From positions 62,001-114,146 of the forward strand of contig JAWLHK010000013.1 in NCBI GenBank assembly GCA_041690355.1: a stretch of 52,146 nt of DNA, written 5' to 3'. The stretch's first letter is position 1. The number at the start of each line of letters is the position of its first letter. The notes beneath the pieces are model-generated. The model saw only the letters and a list, made by a program, of their open reading frames with translations. It was not told the origin of the DNA and made no database searches. The DNA is from a bacterium (GTDB taxonomy: Bacteria; J088; JAWLBW01). The position numbers were made by a program, and so were the translations under genes. Below are positions 9,682 to 26,467 of this stretch, piece by piece.

Positions 9682-9721
9682 GGAGTGCCGTGAAGGGGGG
9701 CGGTGCGTTATCCTGATGGGT

Positions 9722-12358
9722 ATGCCTGCTGCTCGCCCCCGTACGCTGCTTGCTACGCACACGTCGTCGGATCTCGACGGCTTCGCCGCCCTCGTCGCGC
9801 TTCGCCCCCTGTTTCCGGAGGCGCGCATCCTGGTCGCCGAGCGCGTGCAGGAGTCGGTGGCCGATCTGCTTCACGAGCTGGCCGGCGCCGAATACCTGCT
9901 GCGCGAAGCCGATCTGGATCCGTCGCGCATCGAGCGGCTCGTCGTCGCCGACACGGCCGACCTGAGCCGGCTGGGCCGATGGACGGCTGCGCTGCCGGCC
10001 ACGGCACGTCTGCTCGTGTTCGACCACCACCCCCCCGAAACGCGCAACCTGCCGCAGGGGGCCGAGCTCGACCTGCGTCATGGCGAAGTGGGCTCGGTCT
10101 GCACGCTCGTGACCGAATACCTCCAGGCGCAGGCGGCCGACGTCGAGCCGCGAACGGCCACGCTCCTGCTCGCGGGGCTCTTCGAAGACACCGGCCAGCT
10201 GGCCTTTCGCTCGACGCGGCCGCGCGACTTCACGGCGGGAGCCGCGCTGCTGAGCTGGGGGGCCGATCCCGCGCTGGCCGCCCGCTACCTCCAGCGTCTC
10301 TGGGATGCGCGGCGCATCGCGCTGGTCGCCGATCTCCGGGAGAACGCGCGCCTGGTTTCCTGGGGCAACCTGCGGGCCCTGCTGGCCCAGCTCACCCTGC
10401 CGTACTTCGTCGCCGACGTCGGGGGCCTTGCCTCGGAGCTCACGGCCGAAGGGGCCGACGCGGCCTTTCTGCTGGCGGCCGTTCCCGACAAGGTCTTCAT
10501 CGTCGGGCGGTCGCTCAGCCCGGGGGTTTCTGTGGCCGAGGTCATGCAGGAGCTCGGCGGCGGCGGACACGAGACGGCCGCCTCGGCGGTGCTCACCGAC
10601 ACGACGCTCGTCGAAGCCGAGGCTGCTCTGCGCCGCGCGCTCGATCATCGGGCCGCGCCGCTCCTGGCCGCCCGCGACATCATGAGCCGGCCGATTCTCT
10701 CCGTCGATGTTGCCGCACCGATTGCAGACGCGCACCGCAAGCTCTCCGCGTTTCGCATCGGCTCGCTCGTGGTCACCGAGAAGGGGGCACCGGCGGGCAT
10801 CATCGATGCCGATGCCGCCGCCCTGGCCGTCGAGCATGGAGTTCACGCCGAGCCGGTGCGCGACTACGCGCGCGCGCTCCCCGATCCGGTCGACGTTGCG
10901 ACGCCTCTGCATGAACTGCGGGCGCTGCTCTACCGCACCCACGAACGCTTTTTCGTGGTCTACGCCGAGGGCGAGCCGGCCGGGGTCGTCACCCGCCGCG
11001 ACGTGCTGCGTGCCGTCTACGAGCAGGCGGCGCCCCCGGTGCGCGGCGCGGGGGGCTCGACCGCTCCGGCGCGCCACCTCGGGGGTGAATTCAAACCGCA
11101 ACTGGGCGCTACGGTGGCGGCGCATCTGCGGCAGGTGGGCGCGTGGGCGGGAGAGGGGGGCTGCCGCACCTTTCTGGTCGGCGGGGGCGTGCGCGACCTC
11201 GTACTGCGACGCAAGCCGACCGATCTGGATCTGGTCGTCGACGGCGAGACCGGGGCGCTTCTCGATCGCCTGCGCGATGCGGGGGCCGAGGTCAAGGTCT
11301 TCGGCCGCTACCACACGGCGCACGTCGCGTTCGCCGACGGCACGGCCTTCGATCTGGCCCGCGCCCGCCGCGAGACCTACGCGCGTCCGGGCGCCCTCCC
11401 CGAGGTCGTGCCCGGGAGCCTCGAACAGGACCTTTTTCGCCGCGACTTCACGATGAACGCGCTGGCCGTCGACCTCTCTCCCGATCGGTTCGGCCAGCTG
11501 TTCGACCGCTTCGGCGGCCTGTCCGATCTCAAGCACGGACGCATTCGCGTGCTGCACAGCCTGAGCTTCGTCGAAGATCCGACGCGCGCCTTCCGGGCCA
11601 TGCGTCTGGCCGTACGCTTCGGCTTTTCGCTAGAAGACCAGACGCGCCGTCTGCTCGAGCGGGCGGTGGCCCTCGACCTGTTCCGCGAGAGCGAGGGGAC
11701 CCGTCTGCGGCGCGAGCTGGTGCTCATCTTCGAAGAGCGTGACCCGCTGGCCGTGCTCCACGCGCTCGAGGAGCGCGGCATCCTGCGCGCCACGGGCGGG
11801 CTCGCGTTCGGTCCCGAGGAGGAAGCGCGCATGCGGGCGGCCTTGGAGTGGATGGACTGGTACCGGGTACAGTTCGGCGGGCCGCCGCGCTACGGCGAAA
11901 CGCTCATGCTCGGCATGCTGACCGCCGGCATGTCGCCCGAGCGGGGCCGCACCGCGCTCGAAGGCTGCAAGGTGCCCGGCGTCGAAATCGAGCGCTGGGA
12001 AGGTTTCAGGCAAGGGGCCCGCGACCTTGCCCGTTTTCTGGGTGCGGATGCGCACGTACCCTCGGCAGTCGCCCGCCGGGTCGAGCAGGCTGCTCCCGAA
12101 ACGCTTCTCGTGCTGGGGATGCTGCACGGCGAGCACCGCGAAACGGTGACGGCCGCGCTGACCCGCTGGCCCGGCGTCCGCCCGGGCCTCTCGGGCGACG
12201 ATCTCATGGCGCTGGGGATTCCCCGCGGGCCGGAGCTGAGCGCCTGGACCCGCCGCATCCGCGACGCGCTGCTCGACGGCAGACTTCAGCCGGGGCCTGA
12301 AACCGAGCGGGCCTGGGTGCGCGAGCGACTGGCTTCAGGCGCCTCGAAAGACGGCTGA
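9722..12358 (+). CDS. tRNA nucleotidyltransferase with N-terminal DHH/DHHA1 and CBS domains (A-adding type architecture)
   Basis: DLDG, FDHH, EDTG, GGGH; CBS pair; VGGGVRD, DLDLV, RRDFTMNAL, SFVEDPTR; alternative start 9716. Confidence 0.9.
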   Translation: MPAARPRTLLATHTSSDLDGFAALVALRPLFPEARILVAERVQESVADLLHELAGAEYLLREADLDPSRIERLVVADTADLSRLGRWTAALPATARLLVFDHHPPETRNLPQGAELDLRHGEVGSVCTLVTEYLQAQAADVEPRTATLLLAGLFEDTGQLAFRSTRPRDFTAGAALLSWGADPALAARYLQRLWDARRIALVADLRENARLVSWGNLRALLAQLTLPYFVADVGGLASELTAEGADAAFLLAAVPDKVFIVGRSLSPGVSVAEVMQELGGGGHETAASAVLTDTTLVEAEAALRRALDHRAAPLLAARDIMSRPILSVDVAAPIADAHRKLSAFRIGSLVVTEKGAPAGIIDADAAALAVEHGVHAEPVRDYARALPDPVDVATPLHELRALLYRTHERFFVVYAEGEPAGVVTRRDVLRAVYEQAAPPVRGAGGSTAPARHLGGEFKPQLGATVAAHLRQVGAWAGEGGCRTFLVGGGVRDLVLRRKPTDLDLVVDGETGALLDRLRDAGAEVKVFGRYHTAHVAFADGTAFDLARARRETYARPGALPEVVPGSLEQDLFRRDFTMNALAVDLSPDRFGQLFDRFGGLSDLKHGRIRVLHSLSFVEDPTRAFRAMRLAVRFGFSLEDQTRRLLERAVALDLFRESEGTRLRRELVLIFEERDPLAVLHALEERGILRATGGLAFGPEEEARMRAALEWMDWYRVQFGGPPRYGETLMLGMLTAGMSPERGRTALEGCKVPGVEIERWEGFRQGARDLARFLGADAHVPSAVARRVEQAAPETLLVLGMLHGEHRETVTAALTRWPGVRPGLSGDDLMALGIPRGPELSAWTRRIRDALLDGRLQPGPETERAWVRERLASGASKDG

Positions 12359-12488: not shown

Positions 12489-12938
12489 GTGACTCGCATC
12501 GCCATCGCACTGTATCTGCTTGCCCAGGCTGCGCCCGCGCAGACGGCGCCCGACATGCAGGGAAAAGTGCGCGTCTTCATCAAGGATCCGGACGTCAAAG
12601 AGGGGTGGCGGGAGTCTGAGGTGGTGCGTCCGGGAGATACCGTCCGGTACCGGCTCGAATACCAGAACAAGGGTACCGGACCGGCCGTCGGGTTCACGCT
12701 CCAGAACGAGATTCCCGAGGGGACGCTCCTGCTCGAGCGTCCGACGGCGCGTAACTGCCGCCTCGAGTTCTCCCATGACGAGGGGCGCACGTATGCCGAG
12801 AATCCGACCCGCAAGGTGAACGGAAAAACGGTTCCCGTGCCGCCCGCCGAATTCACGCACCTGCGCTGCCGGCAGACGCCGCCGCAGATTGCACCCGGCG
12901 AGCAGGTTGCCGCCGAGTACCTGGTTCTGGTGAAGTAA
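12489..12938 (+). CDS. Small secreted single-domain DUF11-like protein (candidate chaperone/cap)
   Basis: Signal peptide; VRPGDTVRYRLEYQNKG, EFSHDEGRTY; ends AEYLVLVK without the N-x-A strand. Confidence 0.8.
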   Translation: MTRIAIALYLLAQAAPAQTAPDMQGKVRVFIKDPDVKEGWRESEVVRPGDTVRYRLEYQNKGTGPAVGFTLQNEIPEGTLLLERPTARNCRLEFSHDEGRTYAENPTRKVNGKTVPVPPAEFTHLRCRQTPPQIAPGEQVAAEYLVLVK

Positions 12939-13005
12939 GCCGCTTTACGTTCGTCGACTGCATTTTATGTCCGGGAACAAGTCGTTCCACGAGGAGGAGG
13001 GAATC

Positions 13006-15447
13006 ATGAATCGAGTCCGTTTGCTCGCGTTTGCCGTGCTGGCGCTGCTGGTTTCGGCGACCGGGGCGCAGGCCGCCGGTACGCCGGTAGGCACCGTCAT
13101 TTCGAACCAGGCCTCGGCCACCTACGAAGATTCGACCGGCAATACCTACAATGCCTTGTCGAACCTCGTCCAGATCACGGTCGAGCAGGTCTATTCGGTG
13201 ACGATTACCCCGCTGACCGCGACCGATCAGGGCGTGGCGGGCGGTATCGTCTACTACGCGCACGAAGTGCAGAATACGGGCAATGGCGGAGACTCGTTCA
13301 GCTTTTCGAGCTCCGACTCGCAGGCCGGCTTCACGTCGACCATCTATGAAGATGTCAACGGCAACGGCATCCTCGAAGGGGGCGAACCGGTTCTCGCCAG
13401 CCCCTTCGCGCTGGCGGCCGACGCCACCGTGCGCATCATCGTCGCCGTCCAGATTCCCCCGGCCCCGCTCGCTTCGAACGACACGACGGTGCTCGTGACT
13501 TCGGTGGGTGACAATACCCAGACCGCGACGGCCACGGATACGACCAATATTTCGACCGGCCCGGTGCTGAACGTGACCCTGTCGCATGCGCCGGCCACGG
13601 TCAATCCCCTCGACATCCTGACGCTCACGGCGACAGCCGACAACAACGCCGGCGTCGACGATGCCGACAACGTCGTGCTCGTGCAGGCCGTTCCCGCGAA
13701 CACCGTCCTTCAGACCGGGACGACGGTCGTCGGCGGAACGTACGGCGGAACCTTTACCGTCGAGTACGACGACGGATCGAATACGTGGGCCCTTGGCGAC
13801 TCGGCTTCGGCCACCCAGGTGCGCGTGACCCTGACCCAGGTCGGCGGCGACATCCCGGTCTCGGGCACCGTGACCCTGGCCTTTGACGTGCAGGTCCAGA
13901 CGACCGCGCCGGCCGGTACCCCCGGCGTGACCCAGACGGCCACGGTCGATTACACGAATACGGCGGCGGTCGCGCAGACCCCCGACTCGGCCACGAACGA
14001 CATCACGGTCAACCAGGCTGCGGCGGTGACCCTGACGAACGACACCGGCCCGAGCCAGTCGACGCTGCCCGGGACGGCGGCCGACTACGTCTACACGATC
14101 ATCAACACCGGCAACGGAACCGACACGTTCGACCTGACCGTGAACGCTGTGCCCGGTTTCACGGTCGAACTGCTCGACGGCGCCCTGAACCCGATCGTCG
14201 CCTCGCCGGCGCTTGCCGCGGGCGCCAGCTACTCGTTCACCGTGCGCGTGACGCCGAATGCGAACGCGGCCGACACGACGCTGGCCGCCGGTGCGGTGCA
14301 CACCGTGGTCGCCACGAGCCAGTTCAACAATACCGTCAATGACAGCGACACGGCCACGACGACGGCCGACCGCAACACGCTGGTGACGGTGAGCTCGGCC
14401 GCCCCCAGCCTGACCGGCGTCGTCGGCGGAACGATCGTTTACACGGTCACCGTCACGAACGACGGCGACGCCCCCGACGCCTTCGATCTGGCGGTCAGTG
14501 ACGTCGGCGGCACCTACGCCGGCGCCACGAACCCGTGGAACTACGTGCTCTCGGCCGTGCAGACGGCGGTTCTCGCGCCGGGCGCTTCGGAAAACATCAC
14601 GGTCACCGTCACGGTGCCGGCCGATGCCGACCCGAACATCCCCGACACGGATATCATCCGCGTGGCCGCCACGCCGGTCTATGACGACAACGGCGTGCCC
14701 GATGCGACGAATTTCGTCGACTTGACGAGCACCGTGCAGGCCAACTTCGCCCATACGCTGACGGTGGTCGGACCGGCCAACCTCGACGCCGTTTCGGGCG
14801 GCTTCGCCACCTACCAGCTCGACCTCGCCAACACCGGCGACGCCGACGACAGCTACGACCTGAGCGTCGCGGCGAGCTCGCAGGGCTGGACCTGGACGTT
14901 CTACCTCGACAACGACCTCAGCGGCACGGTGAACGCCGGCGACACGAACGTCTCGGCGACCCCGGTGGCCGTGGCCGCGGGCGGCACGGTTCGCCTGCTC
15001 GCGCGCATCACGGTTCCGGCCGTGATCCCGCCGGTGCAGGACATCTCCGACATCGCCGCCACCTCGGTGGCCGTGCCGGCGAACGTGGCCACGGTGACGC
15101 TGACGACCTCGGTCGGCGCCCCCTCGATCTCGCTCAACAAGAGCTACGTCCTGACCGACACCGACGGCAGCGGCGGCCCGACGCCGGGCGACACCGTGAC
15201 GTACACAATCACCTACACCAACACCAGCACGACGACCGACGCGCTCAACGTCGTCATCAGCGATGCCGTTCCGGCGTTCACCACCTATGTGGCGAACAGC
15301 CTGACCCTGAACGGTGCGCCGCAGACAGACGCTTCAGACTCGCCGACCGACGAAGGCGAGGTCGTGGGCGGCAACGTGCAGGTCACGGTCGGAACCGTCC
15401 CGTTCGGGGCGTCCGGCGACGTGTCCTTCAGCGTGCTGATTCAATAA
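13006..15447 (+). CDS. Secreted Ig-like/DUF11 repeat protein, 813 aa (candidate major fibre subunit)
   Basis: Strong SD GAGGAGGAGG; signal peptide ending AQA; repeated Y...NTGN.D modules; C-terminal LNKS...PGDTVTYTITYTN...ISDAVP. Confidence 0.88.
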   Translation: MNRVRLLAFAVLALLVSATGAQAAGTPVGTVISNQASATYEDSTGNTYNALSNLVQITVEQVYSVTITPLTATDQGVAGGIVYYAHEVQNTGNGGDSFSFSSSDSQAGFTSTIYEDVNGNGILEGGEPVLASPFALAADATVRIIVAVQIPPAPLASNDTTVLVTSVGDNTQTATATDTTNISTGPVLNVTLSHAPATVNPLDILTLTATADNNAGVDDADNVVLVQAVPANTVLQTGTTVVGGTYGGTFTVEYDDGSNTWALGDSASATQVRVTLTQVGGDIPVSGTVTLAFDVQVQTTAPAGTPGVTQTATVDYTNTAAVAQTPDSATNDITVNQAAAVTLTNDTGPSQSTLPGTAADYVYTIINTGNGTDTFDLTVNAVPGFTVELLDGALNPIVASPALAAGASYSFTVRVTPNANAADTTLAAGAVHTVVATSQFNNTVNDSDTATTTADRNTLVTVSSAAPSLTGVVGGTIVYTVTVTNDGDAPDAFDLAVSDVGGTYAGATNPWNYVLSAVQTAVLAPGASENITVTVTVPADADPNIPDTDIIRVAATPVYDDNGVPDATNFVDLTSTVQANFAHTLTVVGPANLDAVSGGFATYQLDLANTGDADDSYDLSVAASSQGWTWTFYLDNDLSGTVNAGDTNVSATPVAVAAGGTVRLLARITVPAVIPPVQDISDIAATSVAVPANVATVTLTTSVGAPSISLNKSYVLTDTDGSGGPTPGDTVTYTITYTNTSTTTDALNVVISDAVPAFTTYVANSLTLNGAPQTDASDSPTDEGEVVGGNVQVTVGTVPFGASGDVSFSVLIQ

Positions 15448-15464: not shown

Positions 15465-15493
15465 GGAGGGGCCGCAAGGCCCCTCCCTTTTTT
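15465..15493 (+). terminator. Intrinsic terminator inside the DUF11 operon
   Basis: GGAGGGGCC-GCAA-GGCCCCTCC followed by a T tract. Confidence 0.85.
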
Positions 15494-15501
15494 GGGGTGA
15501 C

Positions 15502-18500
15502 GTGGGCCTGCGACGGTTCAGCTGGATAGGTGTCCTTGCAGCGGTGCTGTGGGGTGGCTACGCATGGACGGCCACCCTCGCAGGGGTACAGATCCGGAAT
15601 CGCGCCGAAGCGGTCTATTACGACGCCGCCGGGCGCGAGTATGTCGCCTACAGCCCCTGGAGCGTTCTTGTCGTCGCTCCGGTGCTCTCCTTTTCGATTT
15701 CACCGTCGGCCGACCAGACCCGCGAGGGTACGGCGGGTACGTTCGTCACCTTTCCCTACCTGCTCGCCAACAGCGGCAACGTCACAGCCACGCTCGCCTT
15801 TTCGCTGGCGGGCACCGGGCCGTTCGAGGCGTATGAAGATCGCAACGGCAACGGCGTGATCGATGCGGGCGACGGTCTGCTGCCGTCGAGCGTGGAGCTG
15901 GAACCCGGCGCATCGCTCTCGGTGCTCGTGCTGCTCATCGTGCCGCCCGGCTCGCTGGCGGGCGACCTGTACGCCAACGATCTGCAGATCACCGCCGACT
16001 ACCCCGACAACCCGTTCACGCCCGTCGTACAGACCGTGCGCCAACGCGTCGACGTCGTCGAAGGCTCGCGATTCAGTCTCGGCAAAGGGGTGACGCTGCA
16101 GCAGGATGTCGACGGCGACGGCCGCCCCTCGCGTGGTGACGTACTCGAGTGGTCGGTACGTGCGTTCAATGAGGGAGACGAAGAAATCACTTCGCTCGTC
16201 GTCAGCGATCCGCTTCCGCCGACCGTCGTCTACCGGCCGGGACAGACGCGGCTCGAGCCCTGGAACCTGGCGGGGGGAACCCAGGCGGTGCTCGAATCGA
16301 GCGCCGACGGTTCGGTCTGGCATCCGGGCGAACCGTTGCCGGGGGAACGTTTTCTGCGCGTGCGCATGGATCTCGGCGGCGGCGGGGTCTTTCCGTCCGG
16401 CGCCGGTTTCCGCTTCACCTACCAGACGACCATCACCGACCAGACCTCGTACCCGGCCACCATCACGAACGTGGCCGTCGCAAAGTTCGAAGATCGGTTC
16501 AGTCCGCCGGTGCACACGCATCCGTCCAATGTCGCGTCGGTATTCGTGCAGGCGACGAACGGACTCGACATGCGCCTGCCCGTGCGCACGAGCGGCACGG
16601 CCGGAAGCCGTCTGCGCTGGTCGGCGGCCGTGACGAATACCACGGCCTCTCCCGTTCTCGTGAACTTTTCGGGAACCGGCCTCGTCTGGCCGTTTGTCCT
16701 GTACGATGCCGCGGGTACACCGCTGCCGGATGCCGATAACGACGGCCGCCGCGATCTGATCGCACCGCCGGGCACCACCTATTTCCTGGTCGAAGAAGAC
16801 CTCGCGGGAGCAAACGCCGGCGACATCGGTGACCTGAGCCTGACTGCGCGATCGGCAGTCGGAGCCGTTACGCGGGTGCACCGCACCGAGGTTGTCGGCG
16901 CGGTGCTCACCGCGGCGCCGGATGCGCCGGCGACGCAGGGGGCCGCGGGGACGACGGTCCGCATTCCGGTCACGCTGACGCTGGATGCGAGTTCGAACCA
17001 GCTGGTCACCGTCACGCCGGGCAGTTCGCCCTGGCCGGTGCGCGTCGTCGATGACGCCGGCCGCCCGTTGACCGATCTGGCGCTTTATCCGGGACGGCCG
17101 GTGACGGTCTACCTCGAAGTCGACATTCCCGCCGGCACCCCCGTCGGGGCGACGCGCCTCGTCACGGCGACCGTCGGCTGGAGCGGAACGCCGATTACGG
17201 TGCAGGCGACCGTGCAGACGACGTCGAGTCTGGGGCTTCTTCTCGCCCCCAGCGGGATGCGCCAGCGCGTAAATCCAGGCGGTACCGTCGAGTTCGCGCA
17301 CGTCGTCACGAATGTCGGCACCGTGCCGCTACGGACTTCACTTGTGCTCCGCCGTGAGACCGCCGTCATTGACCCGAAGGCGATCCGGCCCCAGACCGCT
17401 TCTGCCGCCGCAGCCACCCGTGCCCAGACGGCGCGCTGGCGTTTCGATTTTCTTTCGGGCGATCGGCCCATGGTCGATGATGACGGTGACGGGTATCCTG
17501 ATTTCGGCGTGGTCCCTCCCGGCGAAACACGGCGGTTCGTCGTCCGGGTGCGCGCGCCGCTCGAGGCCGCCCTGGGCACGGTTCAACCGTTTCGCATCGT
17601 CGGGCGGGCTGTCGGATACAACGACGTCGAGATTGCAGACGAAGTCGTCGTCGGCGGCGTCCCGCGGTTCGAGGCCGAGAGCAGCCGCAAGAGCGTGTCA
17701 CCCGCCGGCCGGGTCGAACCGGGCATGACGCTGCGGTACGCCGTACGCGTACGCAACGTGGGCGAGACCGCGGGCACCGAAGTCACCATCCGCGATCCGC
17801 TCCCCCAGGGGCTCGAGACGCCGAGCATCGTGCACGGCGAGGGTGCCTGGGATGCGCAGAGCCGGACCCTGACGTTTGCGCGCCCCCGCCTGGAACCGGG
17901 CGAAGAATGGGAAGTCGCCTTCGACGCCGTGGTGGCGTCCGACGCCCCGGTCGACGAAGAGCTGGTCAACCGCGCCTTCATCCAGACGGCCGAAATCTCG
18001 CCGTTCGAAACGAACGCCACGCGCACGCTGGTGCTCGAACGCGCCTTGCGGCTGGTGAAGACCGTCGACGAGAAGACGGCCGAAACCGGCGATTTCACGC
18101 ACTGGAACCTGCTGGTCGAGAACAGCTCGCGCCGGATGCCGCTTTTCGACGTGCAGGTGACCGACCGGCTCCCCCCCGGCCTGAGCTATGTCGCCGGAAG
18201 CGCGCGCGTCGACGGGCGGAGGCTGGCCGATCCCGAACGTGACGGTTCACTGCTGGTCTGGACGCTCGACGAGCTGGCGCCGGTCACGCGGCGCAAAATC
18301 ACTTTTCTTGCCACCGTCGATCCGCTGCGCACCGGGCGGGATCGGGAGAATATCGCCTGGGCGGCGGCCCGCACGCCCAACGGCCATGCGATCGACTCGG
18401 CCCGCGCGCGGGCCGTCGTGCGCATCGTCGAGGGGCTCTTCACCGACCGCGGCACGATCATCGGACGCGTCTTCTACGATGCCGACGAAAACGGCCGCTT

Positions 18501-21500
18501 CGACGGAAACGACTTCGGCATCCCCCAGGTGCGCGTCTATCTCGACGACGGCAGCTGGGCGCTCACCGACGGCGCCGGGCAGTATCACCTCCCCGACGTC
18601 GTCGACGGGACGCATGTCGTGCGGCTCGATGCCGCGACGCTTCCCGACGGCGTGAAGCCGCGGGCCCTCGACATGCGCTTCGGCAGCCGCGAAGACAGTC
18701 AGCTCCTCTTCCTCCCCCCGTCGGGAATGGCCAAGGCCAACTTCCGCGTGGTGGGCGTGCCCGAGCGGGTCGGCACGGTGCCCCTGTTCCCCATGGAGCG
18801 GCGGGTGGCCGGGGCGGTGCGCGCTTCGCTGCAGCTTGCCGGGGTCGAAGCGGCGGCGGGGAGCGCGAGCGCGGGGCGCCTGATTCCGTACCCCGATCTT
18901 GCGGGCGCCAAACCGCCGGCGACGAGGCTTCTCGGCTGGCTGGAGGGGCTGCAGGGGCGTTCGCTCGTGCTTGACGGAACCACCGGGGCCGCCTACCTGG
19001 CGCGCAAACGCGAATTCGAGCGCGCGGGCTTCCGCGTGTCGCTGGGCGATCCGTCGGCCGTGCCGGCCATCCGGGTGCTCGGCGCCGACACGAACGGGGC
19101 CGATCTGGTGCACTTCCGCCTGATGGCCGAGGCCGAGACGACGGCGACCGTCGAACTTCAGATTCCGCCCGAGCTGGCCGTTCTGGCGCCGGAAAGCGGA
19201 TCGCTGCGCCCCGCCGGCGATCGCTGGCTGATGACGATCCCCCCCGGTTCGGCGCCGGGCACCTTTACGGCGCGCGTCCGCCCGGGTACGCCCGCCGGAA
19301 GCTATCCCGTCGTGGCCGTCGAGCGATCGACGGGGCTTGCCGTGACGGCCGAGACCGTCGTCGACGACGGTGCCGTCTGGTTGACGGGTACGCTCGGCGG
19401 CACGCAGTTCGAGGCCGGGAGCGACCGCTTGAAAGAGGCCGCTGTGGTCGAGCTGACCGTGCTCGGCGATCTGCTCGCCGCTCATCCGGATCTTGAGATC
19501 ACTGTTCTGGCGCGCGTCGACGGCAACGGCTTCGATCGCAGCGCGTTTCCCACGAATGCCGCGCTCGCCGAAGCGCGTGCCCGCGCCGTCGCCGCCGTGA
19601 TCGAGGCGCGCGGAGTCGACGCCGCGCGCCTGGCGACGGCCGGGGAGGGGAGCGAAGAAGAAGGACTCGACGGCTTCACGCTCGTCGGGCGCAATCGGAA
19701 CCAGCGGGTCGACATCCGGGTTGTCGATCCCTCGCTCCCCCCCATCCGCGTGCGCGCCGGCCGTCCGGGCGAGGCTTCGCTCAGCCGGACGTCCGAAGTC
19801 ATCCGCGGGTGGATGGCCACCGGCGCTGTCGCGCGCGACGCCGTGAAGCTGCGCTTTTCCGTTCCGGACGCCGAGCGGGCCCCGCGGCCGACCGTCGAAG
19901 TGAACGGTCTGCCGCTCGCATCGCGGGCGATCACGTCGGATACGAGCGGCTGGTATTTTCCGGCCGTCTCGGGCTCGACCTTCACGGTGCTCTACGAGAC
20001 CCCGGCATCCACGGCGACCGTGCATGTCTTCGACGTGCCCCGCGTCGGCCTCGTGAGCCGGACCGACACCGAAGTGGATCGCCTGAATCTGCAGGGTATT
20101 CTGAGCGGCTCGCAGCTTCCGCCCGGCGGCGCCGTCCCGCCCGTGCGCGACGCGACCGTGTTCCGCGCCCTGGTGCTCCCGCCCGCCGCGGGAGATACCG
20201 CCGAGGCGGTGGCGTTGCCGCCGACACTCGCGGCACCGGCGCCGCTGACCGATGCCGTGGCCGATCCGACGCCGCGCCTGATCTTTCCGCCTGCAGACGG
20301 CGTGGCAAGCCGCGCCTCGCTGCGCGTGCAGGCCGTCGTGCACGCGGCGACGACCCCGCAGCTTACGATGAACGGAGAACCGGTCGCGGCTTCGCGACGC
20401 GCGCTGCTCATCGAAGACAAGGCGCAGCAGCGCACGGCCATGGAGTGGCTCGGCGTTCCGCTCGTGACGGGAAAGAATACCTTGCTGCTCGAGGCGCGCG
20501 ACCAGTTCGGCATCGTGCGCCAGCGTGATGAGCGCACGATCTGGCTGCCCGGAGAGATCGCCCGGATCCGCGCCGCGGCCTCTCCCGCGACCCTCCCGGC
20601 CGACAGCCGCAGCATCGCCACCCTGCGCTTCGACCTGTTCGATCGGCTGGGGCTGCAGCCGGCGGATACCCGGTACGTGACCCTCGCCTTCGAAGGGGTC
20701 GAGCCTGTCGATCCGGATTTCAATCTGCTCGAGAACGGCTACCAGATTCCTGTTACGGCGGGCCGCGGGGTCGTGCGCGTGCGTGCGCCGGGCGCCGTGC
20801 GCGAAGCCTGGGTGACGGCACGCCTGGGAGCCCTGTCGACGAAACTCGACATCGGGGTCGTGCCTCAGATGCGCGACTGGATCGTCGTCGGCTTCGGCGA
20901 GGGGACCGTCGGCTACAAGAGCTTCGTGAGTCACCTGGAACCGCCCGACGGCAGCGAGACGTTCGCCAACGGCGTGTTCATCGACGGCAAGACCTCGTTC
21001 TTTCTCCGCGGGCGGATCCTGGGGGAATATCTGTTGACGGCGGCGGCCGATACCAAACGGCATGACGATTTGACCCTCTTTCAGGGGATCGAGCCCGACC
21101 GCTATTACCCCGTTTACGGCGACGACAGCGTCGTCGGCAAGGACGCGCCGACGTCGGGACCGCTCTACGTCAAGCTCGAGAAGGGAAAATCGTATCTGTT
21201 CTGGGGCGATTACAACACGTCCTTCAACGATACGGTGCTCACGGCCTATAACCGCGTCTTCAACGGTCTTGCCGCGCGCTACGATTCGCCGGGCCTGATG
21301 GCAAAGGGCTTCGTGAACTACGGCAACCAGGCGCGGGTTGTCGAGGAGCTGCGCGCCAACGGCACGAGCGGCTATTACTTTCTCTCGGCCGGTCCGATAC
21401 TCGAGGCCTCGGAGCGCCTCGAAATCGTCGTGCGCGATCGCGCCAACGAAGAATTCATCGTCTCGGTCAGGCAGCTCGTGCGCGGGGCCGACTACGACAT

Positions 21501-23289
21501 CGACTATCAGGCGGGCACCATCCTGTTTCGCGAGCCGCAGCCGGCGCTCGATCCTGACCTGAATCCGCGTTTCATCCGCGTTCTCTACGAGGTGCGGGGC
21601 GGCGATACGAAATTCTGGACGTTCGGCGGCAGGGTTCGTGCGCGGCCCACGGACTTCCTTGAAGTCGGCGCCACCGAGGTGCGCGAGCAGCGGCTGGGCG
21701 ACGCCTACAATCTCGCCGGCGTCGACGCCAAGGTCGCGCTGCCGCTGCGCACGATTGTGGGGGCCGAACTGGCGCGCTCCGACACGGTCCTGAACGGTAC
21801 CGGAACGGCCCAGCGCTACCTGCTCGAATCGAACCCGGTGGGCCCGCTCGAAATCCACGGCGACGCCTACCGGCTCACACAGCGCTTTGAAAACGAGTTT
21901 TCGCTGCTCCATCCGGGAACGACCGGCGCGCGGCTGAATGGGTTGTACCATCTGACGTCGAACGTCGATGTCGTCGCCGCCCAGACACTCGAGAAACGCG
22001 AAGGGCCGCCCGAGAGCCTCGTGAGCGCCTCGACGCTCGCCACGCGCCTCAACTGGGAACGCCAGCAGATCGAGGTGCGTTACCTTCACATCGAGAGTGA
22101 GGTCGCCGACGAGAACGAGGCCGACGATACGCTGCGCCTGAGCGGGCGGGCCCCGATTTACGACAAGCTGAGCGGAACCGTGTTCGGCGAGCAGAGCTTC
22201 CATCTGTTGCGGGCCAACGCCTTCGGGGCCGGACTCGACTACCAGCTCCTCAATTCCACCCGCGTCTACACGAAGTACGAAAACCGCAGCCGCGAGCTCT
22301 TTCTCGTGAGCGACAGCAACCTGACACAATCGCTCCCCACGGCGCTGCAGACGCAGTCGGGCCGGCAGAATCTCTTCACGCTCGGCGTCGACACGCAGCT
22401 CGAATACGGCTTCACTGCCTATTCGGAATATCGCGGCACCTATACGCCCGAGGAGCCGCTCGACCAGATCGGCTCCGGGGTGCGCAACCGCTACCCGATC
22501 ACGACCCGCTGGACCCTGAACGGGTTTGCCGAGCGGGTCGAAACGCTGCGCGGCGATCCCGACACCGAGCACTGGGCCTTCGGCGCCGGCGGCGATTACC
22601 TGTGGTCTGGCCGGGCGAAGGGGACGCTGCGGAGCGAGTACCGCATCGGCGCCATCGATCGTTCGCTCCTTTTCGTCGAGGCCTTTGCATTCAAGGCGCT
22701 CGACAGCCTGACCCTGGTCGAGAAGAACATTTACTACCGGACGTTCGACTTCGTCGAGCGCTTCTCGAACCGGTCCATGCTCGGCGCGGCCTGGCGGCCG
22801 GCCGCGCAGGATATCTTCCAGACGTTCACGCGGCTCGAGTACAAGCGGGAGCGCGCCATTCGCACGGCGACGGAAGATCGCACGGTCGGCCTCGGGGCCG
22901 TCGAGCTGTTCTTCGAGCCGGTACCCGAACTCGAGCTCGACACCAAGTTCGGGGCCAAGCGGGTGCGGGAGCTCGATCTGCCCGGCATCCCGCCGCTGAA
23001 CACCTACCTCGTGGCCGGGAGCCTCTGGCTGCAGTTTCTGCCGCATTTCGCCGTCGGGTACCACGAGCGCGATCTCTTCACCCCCGGGCTGGCGAAACAC
23101 GATGCCTCGCGCGGCCTCGAACTCGGGTGGAATGCCGTCGACGACGCCTGGTTCAACATCGGCTATAACTGGCGCGGCTTCGAAGACCGCGATTTCTCGG
23201 GCAACAGCTATTGGAGCCAGGGCCCGTACCTGCGCGTACGCTTCAAGTTTGACGAGCGCAGCCTCGACAGGGTGATCGGCCATGACTGA
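15502..23289 (+). CDS. Giant outer-membrane protein: DUF11/Ig repeats, SdrD-B-like domain, OmpA-like domain, large C-terminal beta-barrel (candidate assembly platform/anchor)
   Basis: Signal peptide; three complete K/D/N DUF11 modules; IIGRVFYDADENG; QFEAGS...NAALAEARARAV...NQRVDI; about 800 aa C-terminal region rich in amphipathic beta strands ending GPYLRVRFKFDE. Confidence 0.85.
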   Translation: MGLRRFSWIGVLAAVLWGGYAWTATLAGVQIRNRAEAVYYDAAGREYVAYSPWSVLVVAPVLSFSISPSADQTREGTAGTFVTFPYLLANSGNVTATLAFSLAGTGPFEAYEDRNGNGVIDAGDGLLPSSVELEPGASLSVLVLLIVPPGSLAGDLYANDLQITADYPDNPFTPVVQTVRQRVDVVEGSRFSLGKGVTLQQDVDGDGRPSRGDVLEWSVRAFNEGDEEITSLVVSDPLPPTVVYRPGQTRLEPWNLAGGTQAVLESSADGSVWHPGEPLPGERFLRVRMDLGGGGVFPSGAGFRFTYQTTITDQTSYPATITNVAVAKFEDRFSPPVHTHPSNVASVFVQATNGLDMRLPVRTSGTAGSRLRWSAAVTNTTASPVLVNFSGTGLVWPFVLYDAAGTPLPDADNDGRRDLIAPPGTTYFLVEEDLAGANAGDIGDLSLTARSAVGAVTRVHRTEVVGAVLTAAPDAPATQGAAGTTVRIPVTLTLDASSNQLVTVTPGSSPWPVRVVDDAGRPLTDLALYPGRPVTVYLEVDIPAGTPVGATRLVTATVGWSGTPITVQATVQTTSSLGLLLAPSGMRQRVNPGGTVEFAHVVTNVGTVPLRTSLVLRRETAVIDPKAIRPQTASAAAATRAQTARWRFDFLSGDRPMVDDDGDGYPDFGVVPPGETRRFVVRVRAPLEAALGTVQPFRIVGRAVGYNDVEIADEVVVGGVPRFEAESSRKSVSPAGRVEPGMTLRYAVRVRNVGETAGTEVTIRDPLPQGLETPSIVHGEGAWDAQSRTLTFARPRLEPGEEWEVAFDAVVASDAPVDEELVNRAFIQTAEISPFETNATRTLVLERALRLVKTVDEKTAETGDFTHWNLLVENSSRRMPLFDVQVTDRLPPGLSYVAGSARVDGRRLADPERDGSLLVWTLDELAPVTRRKITFLATVDPLRTGRDRENIAWAAARTPNGHAIDSARARAVVRIVEGLFTDRGTIIGRVFYDADENGRFDGNDFGIPQVRVYLDDGSWALTDGAGQYHLPDVVDGTHVVRLDAATLPDGVKPRALDMRFGSREDSQLLFLPPSGMAKANFRVVGVPERVGTVPLFPMERRVAGAVRASLQLAGVEAAAGSASAGRLIPYPDLAGAKPPATRLLGWLEGLQGRSLVLDGTTGAAYLARKREFERAGFRVSLGDPSAVPAIRVLGADTNGADLVHFRLMAEAETTATVELQIPPELAVLAPESGSLRPAGDRWLMTIPPGSAPGTFTARVRPGTPAGSYPVVAVERSTGLAVTAETVVDDGAVWLTGTLGGTQFEAGSDRLKEAAVVELTVLGDLLAAHPDLEITVLARVDGNGFDRSAFPTNAALAEARARAVAAVIEARGVDAARLATAGEGSEEEGLDGFTLVGRNRNQRVDIRVVDPSLPPIRVRAGRPGEASLSRTSEVIRGWMATGAVARDAVKLRFSVPDAERAPRPTVEVNGLPLASRAITSDTSGWYFPAVSGSTFTVLYETPASTATVHVFDVPRVGLVSRTDTEVDRLNLQGILSGSQLPPGGAVPPVRDATVFRALVLPPAAGDTAEAVALPPTLAAPAPLTDAVADPTPRLIFPPADGVASRASLRVQAVVHAATTPQLTMNGEPVAASRRALLIEDKAQQRTAMEWLGVPLVTGKNTLLLEARDQFGIVRQRDERTIWLPGEIARIRAAASPATLPADSRSIATLRFDLFDRLGLQPADTRYVTLAFEGVEPVDPDFNLLENGYQIPVTAGRGVVRVRAPGAVREAWVTARLGALSTKLDIGVVPQMRDWIVVGFGEGTVGYKSFVSHLEPPDGSETFANGVFIDGKTSFFLRGRILGEYLLTAAADTKRHDDLTLFQGIEPDRYYPVYGDDSVVGKDAPTSGPLYVKLEKGKSYLFWGDYNTSFNDTVLTAYNRVFNGLAARYDSPGLMAKGFVNYGNQARVVEELRANGTSGYYFLSAGPILEASERLEIVVRDRANEEFIVSVRQLVRGADYDIDYQAGTILFREPQPALDPDLNPRFIRVLYEVRGGDTKFWTFGGRVRARPTDFLEVGATEVREQRLGDAYNLAGVDAKVALPLRTIVGAELARSDTVLNGTGTAQRYLLESNPVGPLEIHGDAYRLTQRFENEFSLLHPGTTGARLNGLYHLTSNVDVVAAQTLEKREGPPESLVSASTLATRLNWERQQIEVRYLHIESEVADENEADDTLRLSGRAPIYDKLSGTVFGEQSFHLLRANAFGAGLDYQLLNSTRVYTKYENRSRELFLVSDSNLTQSLPTALQTQSGRQNLFTLGVDTQLEYGFTAYSEYRGTYTPEEPLDQIGSGVRNRYPITTRWTLNGFAERVETLRGDPDTEHWAFGAGGDYLWSGRAKGTLRSEYRIGAIDRSLLFVEAFAFKALDSLTLVEKNIYYRTFDFVERFSNRSMLGAAWRPAAQDIFQTFTRLEYKRERAIRTATEDRTVGLGAVELFFEPVPELELDTKFGAKRVRELDLPGIPPLNTYLVAGSLWLQFLPHFAVGYHERDLFTPGLAKHDASRGLELGWNAVDDAWFNIGYNWRGFEDRDFSGNSYWSQGPYLRVRFKFDERSLDRVIGHD

Positions 23290-26200
23290 CGCGCGCCGCA
23301 TCCCGTTCATTTCAAGTCTTGCTCGGGCTCTTTTGCCGGGTCTGCTCGGCCTTCTCTGTGTCCTCGCGTGGCCGGAGACGGCGCTCGCCGCGTGGCCGGC
23401 TGATGCCGACTGGATCGCAGTCAATCAAGGGGGTTCTTCGCAGGCTGACGGCACGCTCGACGAGAATACGGATTACCGCAACGTCGTCGGCGATGCATCC
23501 TACCCGGCGACCTACTGGTACAACGACGGGGTCCACCTCTCCTTCCGCATGCGGCTCGACGGCAGTCCGCAGGGGGGCGGCGGGCAGAACCTGCTCAAGC
23601 CGTTCGGCTGGGGCGTGCTCATCGATACCGACGGCGACTGGAGCGACTACGAGTTTTCGGTCATCGCCAACGGCATTGACGAGAGCGTCACGTTCTACCA
23701 GAACACGTCGCAGAACACGGCGTACGATGCGAGCGATCCGCCCGAGGTAACGCTGGCCGTATACGACACGGCCACGAACGCCAGGGTCTCGCTTGCCGAC
23801 TCGAGTTTCAACGGCACGCCAGATTACTATGTGGACTTCCAGGTCTCGTGGGCGACCTTCATGGCGGCCTCGGGCCTGAATGAAGCGAGCGCGCTGTCTT
23901 TCGTGTTCGGGACATCCAACAACGGCACGACCCTGGGCAGCGACATCAGCGGCAGTACGAACCTGGACATGGGGCAGGGGGGCGGCGACCCCGTTTATCC
24001 CAGCGTCGCCGACATGTCGTTGACGAAATCGCACGCCGCAAACTTCGCCGTCGAAGACACGGGCGTCTATACGCTCACCGTCTCGAACGCCGGCCCGTCG
24101 AACATTGCCGGTCCGATTACGGTGACCGACAGCCTGCCCGCAGGGCTGACCTTCGTGTCGGCCACGGGGAGTAACTGGAACTGCGCGGCGGCCGGGCAGG
24201 ATGTCACGTGCACCCACCCCGGCCTGCTCCTTTCGGGCGCGAGCCTTCCCCCGATCACCCTTACGGTGACCGTCGACGCGGCTGCCTGGCCCTCGGTTAC
24301 GAACACCGCCTCGGCGAGCGCGAACACGACCGATGAAGACCTGACCAACAACACCGCGTCAGACTTCACCACGGTCGAACGCCGCAGCGATCTGGCCATC
24401 GCGAAGACCGACGGGCAGGCCACGGCCATCCCCGGATCTGCCATCGCCTACACGATTACGCTCACCAATCTCGGCCCGACGAGCGTGACCGCGGCCACGG
24501 TGAGCGACACGCTTCCGGCCGCGCTGCTGGGTCCCCTCTTTGCGCCGTCTGCCGGCGCCTACGACGCGGGGAGCGGCCAGTGGACCGGCCTTGCCCTGGC
24601 GGCGGGCCAGTCGGCGACGCTCACGCTGACGGCAACTCTCGACCCGGCGGCGACCGGAACGCTCACGAACACGGTGAGCGTCACGCCCCCGCCCACGTGG
24701 ATCGATCCCGCGGCGGGAAATGACTCCGCTTCGGATACGGATACGCTGACGCCGCAGGCCGATCTGGCGATCGCGAAAACGCAGGACGGCTCCTTCACGG
24801 TGGGCGAAAGCGGAACTTTTACGATTCAGGTCGAGAACCTGGGCCCCTCGGATTCCAACGGCACCATCACGGTGACCGATACGCTCGCCTCGGAGCTTGC
24901 CTACGTCGGGGCCGCCGGCGCCGGATGGACCTGTTCGGTTTCGGGCGCGACCGTCACCTGCACGCGCGCCGGCACGGTGCCGCCGGCGACGATGCTGCCG
25001 GCCATAACGCTCACGGTGCTGCCGGCCGAGGCCGCCGCTGGGGCCTGGGTCACGAACACGGCGTCGCTGGGCGGCGCGACCCCGGATCCCGACGGCGCCA
25101 ACGATACGTCGACGATTCCCGTCCTGGTCGGGCGCCGGATCAGCGGCACGGTGTATGCCGACGCCGATCACTCGGGAACGCGCGACGGCGGCGAAGCCGG
25201 CCCGGGGGTTCCCGTCTACGCCAAGCTCGTCTCGGGGGCCGTCGTCACGCAGAGCGTCCTGGTCGACCCGGTCACCGGGGCCTACGTGCTGCGCGGGGTG
25301 CTCGACGGGTCGTACACGGTCTTCCTCGACGACAACGGCAGCCTCGCCGATGCGTCGCCGACGCCGCCGGCAGGGTGGATCGCCGTCAGTCCTGCATCGC
25401 TTTCTCAGTTCGCCGTCATGGCGGGCGCGAACGTGTCGGGGGTCGACTTCGGATTGTTCAGCGGAAGCCGCGTCGACGGGCTTGTCTTCTTCGACGATGG
25501 CGCGGGCGGCGGCGTCGCGCACGACGGTGTTCAGAACGGCGCAGAAGCCGCGCGAGCAGGCGTGTCGATCGAATTGACCGACGCCGGCGGGACGACCGTG
25601 CTGCAGGCGACGGCCACCGACGGCGCGGGGGCATTCGGGTTCTGGCTTCCCGCTTCCCTGGCCGGACAGACGGTACGCATCCGCGCGAGCGACGGCTTCG
25701 GATTCCGCTCGGCCTCGGGCAGCCCGGGAACGACCGGCGGCAGCTACGATCCGGGAACCGACGAGCTGACCTTCGTCGTCGCCGCCGGCAACGCATATAC
25801 GGGGGTTACGTTCGGCGACGTGCCCGAGAGCGAGTTCTCACCTTCACGCGCGGGGACCGTTCTCGCGGGGGGAACCATCGTTTACGCCGCGTCGTTCACG
25901 GCGGGCACCGCGGGCGATCTGGCTTTCGCGGTCGCGTCGGCCTGGCCGGCCACGGTGTATCTCGACGCCGACGCCTCGGGGACGCTCACCGCCGGCGATA
26001 CGGCCCTCGGCGGTTCGCTGGCGGTCGTGGGCGGAAACGTCTATCGCCTGCTGCTCGAAGTGTCCGTCCCCGCGGCCACGGCCGCCGGCAGCGTGGATGT
26101 CGCCACGTGGACGGCCGCGCTGACCTACGCGGGGACGGCGGTGGTGGAGTCGCACGCGGTACTCGATACGACCGCCGTCGCGCCGTCGCTCGATCTCGTC

Positions 26201-26467
26201 AAGGAGATGTCGATCAACGGCGGGGCGTTCACGTCGAGCCCGCTCGGCGCCGTTCCCGGCGATCTGGTGACCTACCGGGTGACCTATACGAATCCGAGCG
26301 CGCTCACCTTTCAGAACCTGGTCGTAAGCGATCCCATCCCACCCGCGACCACATTCGTGAGCGCGAGCGGCGCGCCCACGCTTTCGGCGGGCGTGCTCAA
26401 CTGGTCGCTCGGCGCGCTGGGGCCCGGCGCGAGCGGAACCGTGGAGTTCACGGTGCAGATTCAGTGA
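23282..26467 (+). CDS. Secreted DUF11/SdrD-B repeat protein with unique N-terminal beta domain (candidate tip adhesin)
   Basis: Overlaps upstream stop by 8 nt; signal peptide ending ALA; three complete DUF11 domains, ISGTVYAD and VDGLVFFD modules, truncated C-terminal DUF11 ending VEFTVQIQ. Confidence 0.85.
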   Translation: MTDARRIPFISSLARALLPGLLGLLCVLAWPETALAAWPADADWIAVNQGGSSQADGTLDENTDYRNVVGDASYPATYWYNDGVHLSFRMRLDGSPQGGGGQNLLKPFGWGVLIDTDGDWSDYEFSVIANGIDESVTFYQNTSQNTAYDASDPPEVTLAVYDTATNARVSLADSSFNGTPDYYVDFQVSWATFMAASGLNEASALSFVFGTSNNGTTLGSDISGSTNLDMGQGGGDPVYPSVADMSLTKSHAANFAVEDTGVYTLTVSNAGPSNIAGPITVTDSLPAGLTFVSATGSNWNCAAAGQDVTCTHPGLLLSGASLPPITLTVTVDAAAWPSVTNTASASANTTDEDLTNNTASDFTTVERRSDLAIAKTDGQATAIPGSAIAYTITLTNLGPTSVTAATVSDTLPAALLGPLFAPSAGAYDAGSGQWTGLALAAGQSATLTLTATLDPAATGTLTNTVSVTPPPTWIDPAAGNDSASDTDTLTPQADLAIAKTQDGSFTVGESGTFTIQVENLGPSDSNGTITVTDTLASELAYVGAAGAGWTCSVSGATVTCTRAGTVPPATMLPAITLTVLPAEAAAGAWVTNTASLGGATPDPDGANDTSTIPVLVGRRISGTVYADADHSGTRDGGEAGPGVPVYAKLVSGAVVTQSVLVDPVTGAYVLRGVLDGSYTVFLDDNGSLADASPTPPAGWIAVSPASLSQFAVMAGANVSGVDFGLFSGSRVDGLVFFDDGAGGGVAHDGVQNGAEAARAGVSIELTDAGGTTVLQATATDGAGAFGFWLPASLAGQTVRIRASDGFGFRSASGSPGTTGGSYDPGTDELTFVVAAGNAYTGVTFGDVPESEFSPSRAGTVLAGGTIVYAASFTAGTAGDLAFAVASAWPATVYLDADASGTLTAGDTALGGSLAVVGGNVYRLLLEVSVPAATAAGSVDVATWTAALTYAGTAVVESHAVLDTTAVAPSLDLVKEMSINGGAFTSSPLGAVPGDLVTYRVTYTNPSALTFQNLVVSDPIPPATTFVSASGAPTLSAGVLNWSLGALGPGASGTVEFTVQIQ

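Follow-up and report, generated by a model that had tools for sequence, protein, structure and literature searches.

Results

We analyzed a 52,146-nucleotide stretch of DNA (hereafter the window; all positions refer to it) from a bacterium of the GTDB lineage J088 (JAWLBW01). It corresponds to positions 62,001 to 114,146 of contig JAWLHK010000013.1 in the assembly GCA_041690355.1, and its G+C content is about 67%. The PheS protein shows 71–76% identity to unnamed proteins and 61–62% to its counterparts in Pseudomonadaceae, which puts the source, an uncultured diderm, near or within the Pseudomonadota. Our subject is an open reading frame (ORF) at 15502..23289 of the plus strand, which starts with GTG and codes for a protein of 2595 amino acids (aa). 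The initial annotation, made from the sequence alone, had placed the ORF exactly there and had proposed that its product is a candidate usher-like platform serving as the pore, wall anchor and basal terminator of a fiber. We found that the gene belongs to a cluster of four genes flanked by housekeeping genes. On balance, we favor the view that the 2595-aa protein is the outer membrane anchor and the chain-terminating subunit of a four-gene surface-fiber system based on a split DUF11 (CLIPPER) domain.

The cluster lies on the plus strand. It begins at 12489..12938 with the gene of a 149-aa secreted protein that carries a single truncated DUF11-like domain. Next comes the gene of the 826-aa candidate shaft subunit (12967..15447), in which a signal peptide is followed by a putative donor hairpin, an Ig-like stalk and a truncated DUF11 acceptor; Pfam reports FixG_C and DUF11 in it. 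The 2595-aa protein consists, in this order, of a putative donor hairpin, a stalk, an OmpA-like domain, a pair of Ig-like domains and a predicted giant barrel. The start of the last gene overlaps the stop of the 2595-aa gene by 8 nucleotides. Its product is the 1061-aa candidate tip subunit (23282..26467), which has a unique N-terminal head, DUF11 in four stretches (215.6 bits in Pfam), SdrD_B (35.6 bits) and a truncated acceptor, and has no donor hairpin. The head (residues 37–245, 209 residues, 23390–24016) matches no Pfam family. From locus to locus the tip-type proteins have very different heads, which would be expected of adhesins.

Species genomes were scanned with a pattern from a 12-row alignment; 644 of the 668 candidate stretches were confirmed, and 80 loci were kept. 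These come from Geobacteraceae, Verrucomicrobiota, Beta- and Gammaproteobacteria (Stenotrophomonas, Variovorax, Acinetobacter dispersus) and Acidobacteriota. The genes recurring in the cluster are the small, shaft, big and tip genes, sometimes with an OmpA gene. Of the 41 loci that encode a long form of the big protein and have enough flank, 34 carry the 826-aa family upstream and 33 the small family.

Compared with each other, the 826-aa and 1061-aa proteins share 41% identity in their C-terminal domains (E 1e-13). To determine their extent we used our own DUF11 hidden Markov model (HMM), built from 119 complete domains and 118 positions long. On the last residues of both proteins the match stops at position 86 of 118, while an internal domain covers positions 2–117. 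The truncated domains span residues 716–826 of the 826-aa protein (15112..15444) and residues 965–1061 of the 1061-aa protein (26174..26464; HMM positions 10–86). Pfam agrees: the last domain of the 1061-aa protein matches profile positions 13–84 of 114 and runs up to the protein end, and an internal domain matches positions 1–113. The 80 loci and the window together contain 202 plus-strand ORFs with DUF11, and in 62 of these the protein end lies no more than four residues from a domain cut at HMM position 82–89. None of the 202 ends in a complete DUF11 domain. Judging by these truncated terminal domains, the fold of a subunit would be incomplete on its own, as in donor-strand-complemented fibers.

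What these domains lack is the final pair of strands ('gtltNtAti...dpnpaNNtasatv'), which holds the Asn of a Lys/Asp/Asn triad. In complete domains the triad is conserved at K8 (87%), D42 (92%) and N94 (91%). The acceptors keep the Asp (29 of 29 tip-like proteins and 38 of 41 shaft proteins) and lack position 94. According to the available part of PMC12617251, experiments showed that the DUF11 triad forms an intramolecular isopeptide bond (crystal structure PDB 9IFR; Lys715, Asp748, Asn806), and Gram-negative adhesins, including one with an OmpA-like anchor, have stalks built of DUF11 domains.

The missing strands may be supplied by the N-terminus of another subunit. Over their N-terminal domains, the 826-aa and 2595-aa proteins agree at 34% identity (E 4e-14). 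In the 826-aa protein, the putative donor hairpin lies directly after the signal peptide (residues 37–78, 13075..13200, 'GTVISNQASATY...SNLVQITV') and resembles DUF11 HMM positions 90–117. The donor consensus of this family, AAPxAGTxIGNQASATYTDxSxxxRTATSNxVxTxVQQV, is the best-conserved part of the protein. In the alignment of the 826-aa family (A5), all 24 sequences have the same donor residues I45, N47, A49, A51, T52 and Y53 and the same acceptor residues K725 and D766. The corresponding hairpin of the 2595-aa protein, assigned by motif likeness and by the complex model described below, occupies residues 24–61 (15571..15684). It contains N33 in 'IRNRA' (residues 31–35), which can be read directly where the initial annotation had noted it. 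The invariance of N33 in alignment A4 is no evidence, because the sequences were chosen that way. A donor HMM matches 26 of the 45 long homologues of the 2595-aa protein, with the Asn in 23 of the 26, and none of the 30 short forms. Among the 19 long forms that it missed, several have the motif on visual inspection or begin at an over-extended start. The tip-type proteins have variable N-termini without the donor motif.

In the 2595-aa protein the hairpin follows a signal peptide at residues 1–23 (15502..15570, MGLRRFSWIGVLAAVLWGGYAWT), read by eye from the translation. A signal-like stretch also stands directly ahead of the donor motif in the homologues. The GTG at 15502 gives the 2595-aa protein a plausible signal peptide. 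The database copy of the protein (P0002, 2581 aa) starts 14 codons later, at 15544, and would lose most of it.

To model the joint, we folded residues 620–826 of the shaft protein together with residues 24–190 of the anchor, using our own alignments; this anchor–shaft pair was the one folded. The interaction score ipSAE was 0.73 (0.75, 0.73 and 0.73 in the runs), and the best of three controls gave 0.00. At least 99% of the contacts are common to the runs, and the predicted local distance difference test score (pLDDT) of the partner is at least 85. Of 157 solved complexes 116 reached the score mark, as did 2 of 215 mismatched pairs; these counts are rough because our own alignments were used. 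On the shaft side the interface includes residues 718–727, 757–772 and 825–826, and the contacts of the anchor all lie within residues 24–61 and 93. In agreement with what had been predicted, the model places anchor residues 24–61 between the first strand of the shaft domain (718–727, with K725) and the strand 757–772 (with D766). This predicted arrangement supports completion of the C-terminal domain of the shaft by the anchor hairpin. The role of basal terminator is thus supported in silico, both by the hairpin filling the DUF11 domain of the 826-aa protein and by the recurrent donor/acceptor pattern in related loci, which belong to several phyla. The anchor would end the chain, because it has a donor and no acceptor.

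The 149-aa ORF, which our DUF11 HMM matches at positions 13–50, ends as the other truncated domains do and is an acceptor only. In the small family (149–288 aa; the window and 36 loci) the truncated DUF11 fold and an LP motif are kept. The catalytic Asp, scored at position 42 of our HMM, is present in 0 of 37 members and is mostly replaced by Leu.

The donor hairpin of the anchor is followed by a stalk of DUF11-like Ig modules, recognized by profile matches (residues 62–959, 15685..18378). Pfam bears out the several DUF11 modules of the initial annotation (DUF11 88.2 bits in three stretches; DUF7507 54.2 bits). Strong DUF11 domains lie at residues 736–842 and 849–959, weaker ones at 74–168, 204–247/297–335 and 584–612. 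The triads described as intact are indeed readable in three modules (K195/D236/N324, K730/D765/N823 and K853/D888/N950). The protein combines the profile match and the Lys/Asp/Asn triad that characterize the DUF11/CLIPPER isopeptide domain (PF01345). An SdrD_B-like module, also noted earlier, is present at residues 989–1052 (18466..18657), with a weak score of 22.9 bits, below the PF17210 cut-off of 29.7. When 22 long homologues were scanned with Pfam, 20 of them showed SdrD_B, in most cases immediately behind a DUF11 module. Since 18 of these 20 matches exceed the cut-off, the module of the 2595-aa protein is probably a divergent member. The block of residues 849–1085 is conserved in most loci (tblastn).

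A divergent OmpA-like domain of the peptidoglycan-binding type follows at residues 1303–1400 (19408..19701; about 19390–19725 in the initial annotation). Pfam PF00691 scores it at 36.6 bits against a cut-off of 27.2, NCBIfam likewise reports it, and it is the only part of the whole 2595-aa protein with a match among PDB sequences (YiaD, 2k1s, E 3.3e-6). The sub-fragment alone gives 37.9 bits in Pfam. In OmpA domains the usual motif at this place is GHTD, and the conserved Asp and Arg hold diaminopimelate. As had been read from the sequence, 'ARVD' (1337–1340) replaces GHTD with Asp1340 kept, and 'NAALAEARARAV' (1352–1363) keeps the Arg of RA. The score above the cut-off and the two retained residues support, at the level of sequence, a role of the protein as a wall anchor.

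The next segment (residues 1396–1569, 19687..20208) has a pLDDT of about 30 and is possibly a linker. It comes from a second AlphaFold2 model, which spanned residues 1396–2595 and, with its Foldseek search, added only this disordered stretch and the Ig-like pair. The two Ig-like domains (residues 1575–1787, 20224..20862) stand directly ahead of the barrel and are confidently modeled (pLDDT 85–96), which upholds the further Ig-like domains of the initial annotation. They are conserved ahead of the barrel in many loci (tblastn). In a search of the family profile against PDB, the pair matches Ig-like domains of glycoside hydrolase family 2 (GH2) and, weakly, invasin.

The C-terminal part had been described as about 800 aa of amphipathic strands forming a very large barrel. 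AlphaFold2, given a 58-sequence alignment, modeled the last 816 residues as all-beta (pLDDT 84.0, predicted template modeling score 0.78), and the module itself takes residues 1793–2583 (20878..23250). The model contains 32 strands in unbroken hairpin succession (module residues 243–804), 7–8 earlier long strands and an inserted small beta domain. According to this model, the C-terminal module would be a very large beta-barrel of roughly 38–40 strands. The inserted domain (residues 1955–2013, 21364..21540, 'GTSGYYFL...DYDIDYQAGTILF') has short strands at module residues 179–230, with G175, S191, D218 and Y219 invariant and S177 and G178 nearly so. A conserved loop 'YYPVYGDDS' (21103..21129), in which all 58 sequences share Y90, Y93, G94 and D95 and nearly all share P91, falls into a low-confidence stretch of the model (module residues 77–100, pLDDT below 50). 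The YPVYGD motif may be a partner or ion site. The initial annotation had also stated that the barrel does not end in the usual terminal aromatic residue. This holds for the chain, which ends in ...VIGHD, and not for the last strand, which ends in F2583 ('YLRVRFKF'), 12 residues inside the C-terminus. The family consensus at this place is 'YLRLRxKFDExLF', and in the model a C-terminal helix follows the last strand (residues 2585–2592, module 806–813, 23254..23277).

The Foldseek comparison with ushers, SprA and LptD that the initial annotation had suggested was made with the barrel model, and all of them were matched. The matches are giant single-chain outer membrane barrels (MtrB, SlpA, LptD, FimD and SprA), all with template modeling (TM) scores of 0.16–0.31, so the module would be a very large barrel to which no solved structure is closely related. 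SprA, SlpA, LptD and MtrB are the best structural matches (TM 0.16–0.24 for SprA, LptD and MtrB), yet they show no sequence relation to the module in Pfam, NCBIfam or profile searches. FimD is among the matches as well (9fy9_D, E 9.3e-7; TMq 0.28–0.29). No Pfam family was found in residues 1780–2595 at E ≤ 1. A profile of 58 barrel-family members, searched against all PDB sequences at E ≤ 10, found no usher, nor SprA, SlpA, LptD or MtrB. The ESM Atlas returned only unnamed or DUF11 clusters, both for the barrel module and for the 149-aa protein. Usher, autotransporter, TonB-dependent receptor, LptD and SprA were each considered as the family identity of the barrel and rejected, as no family model matched. 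The barrel module is a large family of its own without a Pfam model. Among clusters at 50% identity, 3151 representatives belong to it at E ≤ 0.001, of which 1253 reach E ≤ 1e-30. In most of them the module is C-terminal in proteins of 1000–2700 residues, and sometimes it stands alone at about 800–900 residues.

The names of the homologues in the source databases are 'hypothetical', 'DUF11', 'OmpA family', 'Ig-like' and 'TonB-dependent receptor'. The last name is given by NCBI to cyanobacterial and rhizobial homologues (P0321, P0329, P0339, P0341 and others). It is probably a misnomer; the precomputed Pfam lists of these proteins hold no plug or receptor domain. We give almost no credence to the idea that the 2595-aa protein is an importer like a TonB-dependent receptor. 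The name and the presence of such receptors among the weaker Foldseek matches speak for it, but these matches reach TM 0.15–0.19, and neither Pfam nor NCBIfam shows a Plug or receptor family in the 2595-aa protein at E ≤ 1.

A barrel that follows an N-terminal passenger recalls type Va secretion. The 2595-aa protein could be a self-contained fibrillar adhesin of this kind, whose barrel exports its own stalk, with the DUF11 neighbors as independent adhesins; the available part of PMC12617251 does describe fibrillar adhesins that combine DUF11 stalks with an OmpA-like anchor. We regard this as rather improbable. No autotransporter family is among the Pfam and NCBIfam hits of the 2595-aa protein, and the modeled barrel has about three times the 12 strands of an autotransporter barrel. 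Moreover, the truncated DUF11 ends of three neighbors, the N-terminal motif shared by shaft and anchor, and the predicted complex would be left unexplained.

The position of the OmpA-like domain varies within the family. In Geobacteraceae it follows the barrel (73.1 bits at residues 1737–1832 of 2007), and in 29 loci it is encoded by a separate gene directly downstream of the barrel gene (54.9 bits in L029). A local OmpA HMM found the domain in 5 of the 80 big proteins, and Pfam at E ≤ 1e-4 found it in 0 of 22 other long forms. The absence is uncertain in the Variovorax relatives, because NCBI names them 'OmpA family', yet Pfam at E ≤ 1e-4 finds none in L047. Since OmpA modules occur on either side of the barrel, both barrel termini would be periplasmic, as in ordinary barrels.

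The structural matches and the OmpA-like domain might also fit a tether between outer membrane and wall, or a giant porin, resembling SlpA of Deinococcus; in that case every N-terminal domain would be periplasmic. SlpA/SDBC is among the best Foldseek matches (8agd_A, TMq 0.31; 8ae1_A, 0.27), and homologues consisting of OmpA and barrel only exist. However, a stalk of about 1000 residues of the isopeptide type, as seen in the surface adhesins of the accessible portion of PMC12617251, would far exceed the width of the periplasm. The donor motif and the acceptor-bearing neighbors with variable heads point outwards, and the rarity of the OmpA domain in long forms, given above, speaks against a tether too. 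We therefore consider a SlpA-like role very unlikely.

The initial annotation had pointed to a topology puzzle: the stalk is N-terminal to a presumably periplasmic OmpA domain and would have to thread through the barrel. The puzzle is real, but soluble, given the OmpA domain on either side of the barrel and the existence of loci in which stalk and barrel are separate genes. In Stenotrophomonas-type loci a stalk protein of 2745–3144 aa with SdrD_B/DUF11 (16 SdrD_B stretches in L044) is encoded shortly upstream of a barrel protein that is about 1120 aa long and carries a signal peptide of its own. Such split loci occur in Stenotrophomonas, Pseudoxanthomonas, Xanthomonas and Silanimonas (L042–L044, L049, L052–L054, L057, L060–L062, L064, L065, L067, L072, L074 and L079). 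The OmpA gene is next in most of them, and none of the listed loci has a donor motif or a shaft gene. Because of these separate genes, the stalk appears to occupy the barrel as a tenant (or substrate) and not to be a fixed component. In the simplest reading, the stalk would pass through the lumen, and the Ig-like pair and the OmpA domain would stay beneath.

Passage of other subunits through the barrel, which would make it a pore, is something that we only infer. The donor/acceptor fiber may be real and the 2595-aa protein its anchor, with a barrel that does nothing but anchor, while the subunits exit otherwise or polymerize base-outwards after secretion. The donor/acceptor logic permits growth at either end, and the stalk-less members of the family must have another role. 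However, the conserved cluster contains no other outer membrane or secretion component, and the N-terminal stalk of the anchor would still have to cross the outer membrane. A barrel of this kind seems to us unlikely, though less so than an autotransporter-like adhesin.

A strong terminator-like hairpin lies at 15465–15486 (plus strand), between the stop of the 826-aa gene and the start of the 2595-aa gene. It has a 9-pair stem with 8 G-C pairs, followed by CTTTTTT. The region has 10 terminator-like sites against 9.3 in shuffled sequences, which is not above chance. The hairpin might fit a higher dosage of the shaft subunit relative to the anchor. A scan of the region found no sigma-70 promoter.

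Further upstream, directly before the fiber cluster, a 906-aa fusion (9638–12358, plus strand) combines DHH/DHHA1, two CBS domains and a poly(A) polymerase head domain. On the minus strand, a 978-aa protein (1159–4095) contains a PD40 repeat and matches Omp85 below the threshold (17.9 bits against 24), and the gene of a TPR-SLT lytic transglycosylase (4095–6275) adjoins it.

Discussion

The results are consistent with the following mechanism. The 1061-aa (tip), 826-aa (shaft) and 149-aa proteins, each ending in a DUF11 domain without its last two strands, would be acceptors. The two-strand hairpin after the signal peptide of the shaft and of the 2595-aa protein would be the donor, supplying the missing strands together with the isopeptide Asn. 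Head-to-tail complementation would give a fiber tip-(shaft)n-anchor with the N-termini distal, and an intermolecular Lys–Asn bond may lock each joint. The giant barrel would hold the anchor in the outer membrane, and the OmpA-like domain would tie it to peptidoglycan. The barrel may also be the conduit to the surface for the fiber and, finally, for the anchor's own stalk. The 149-aa protein, an acceptor without the catalytic Asp, might act as a non-covalent donor cap or as a chaperone.

Several points weigh against this mechanism. The whole case is computational. The donor hairpins alone score about 1 bit (1.0 for the 826-aa protein) or nothing against the DUF11 HMM; because these scores are weak, the hairpins are assigned to the missing strands by their motif likeness and by the complex model. 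The complex prediction may, in turn, have re-created a fold memorized from intact DUF11 domains, so that its pass supports binding without showing it. The contact K725–N33 is not among the listed contacts: K725 and D766 are in register with A35, two residues off, and for this reason the intermolecular bond remains inferred. A complete downstream ORF with a truncated domain is present in just 16 of the 33 long-form loci that have at least 8 kb downstream; some other downstream ORFs extend past the locus end. The Geobacteraceae loci L001–L004 have no shaft and small genes upstream and show His-Asp where the donor Asn is expected. Short forms of OmpA and barrel only (e.g., P0260) indicate that the barrel family also works without a fiber. 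Finally, with the OmpA-like domain between stalk and barrel, the chain would have to thread its own pore, for which we know of no precedent. Loci L001–L004 belong to Geobacter, Citrifermentans and Geomonas; their OmpA domain is C-terminal to the barrel, and a sensor histidine kinase-like ORF lies about 1.2 kb downstream.

The logic of the proposed fiber is like that of chaperone-usher pili (FimD/PapC, with a PapH-type terminator): the tip is acceptor-only, the shaft is donor and acceptor, and the terminator is donor-only. An usher is a 24-strand barrel with a plug, an N-terminal domain and two C-terminal domains. In the chaperone-usher pathway, incomplete Ig folds are filled out by an extension at the N-terminus of the next subunit, and there is one outer membrane barrel per operon, as is known in part from the portion of PMC11821415 available to us. 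Nevertheless, 'usher-like' did not stand as homology: there is no usher sequence match, no chaperone family is among the Pfam hits of the operon proteins, and no PapD-like chaperone gene was found in the operon of the window, so the term is apt by analogy only. The putative donor here is a two-strand DUF11 hairpin, whereas in chaperone-usher pili it is a single strand. Terminator and barrel are one polypeptide here, the modeled strands number about 38–40 against 24 in the usher, and the isopeptide triad is split between subunits.

A covalent lock on donor-strand joints has a parallel in BsaA, a TasA-family protein of Clostridium perfringens with 'donor-strand-exchange-and-lock' fibers. There, according to the accessible portion of bioRxiv 10.1101/2024.11.04.621531, the donor-strand Asn N35 bonds K74 of the next subunit, with catalysis by E56. 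In our system the bond is suggested by the split K/D/N triad. Archaeal threads reportedly combine donor strands with isopeptide bonds as well. Unlike the present proteins, BsaA and the archaeal threads are TasA-like and not DUF11, and their hosts are monoderm or archaeal, without an outer membrane component. With the DUF11/CLIPPER adhesins, our proteins share the domain family and the Lys/Asp/Asn triad, and 9IFR is matched by the family profile. In those adhesins, so far as the part of PMC12617251 at hand reports, the bond is intramolecular, whereas in our system the terminal domains are cut short and another chain would contribute the strand with the Asn.

As to the barrel, SprA, the translocon of the type IX secretion system, passes folded substrates, has 36 strands and is called the largest known barrel in the portion of bioRxiv 10.64898/2026.03.07.710327 available to us. 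The modeled size of our barrel would approach or exceed those 36 strands.

The full-text literature that we searched, which covers few subscription journals, gave no description of the split DUF11 domain, the operon or the barrel family. The 'DUF11' text matches in the tafi paper turned out to be DUF1102 and were discarded. The split-domain fiber is possibly a new variant of donor-strand assembly and possibly a new pilus class. Going further, we propose tentatively, as a possibility well short of even probability, a new class of diderm surface fiber, which would use neither sortase nor chaperone-usher machinery. Its split CLIPPER/DUF11 joints would form by the loan of a two-strand hairpin and would then be locked by spontaneous intermolecular Lys–Asn bonds, as a natural tag-and-catcher. 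The entire fiber, with the stalk of the anchor last, would be threaded through a barrel of about 38–40 strands, larger than SprA and fused to the last subunit.

Conclusions

If the proposed mechanism is true, bacteria with this cluster would have a widespread and so far unnamed route to covalently linked fibers on Gram-negative cells. It would provide a natural split-domain ligation pair for protein engineering and a single-chain barrel at or above the largest known size. It would also explain the function of many giant proteins that are now listed as 'DUF11 repeat' or 'OmpA family' or are mis-named 'TonB-dependent receptor'.

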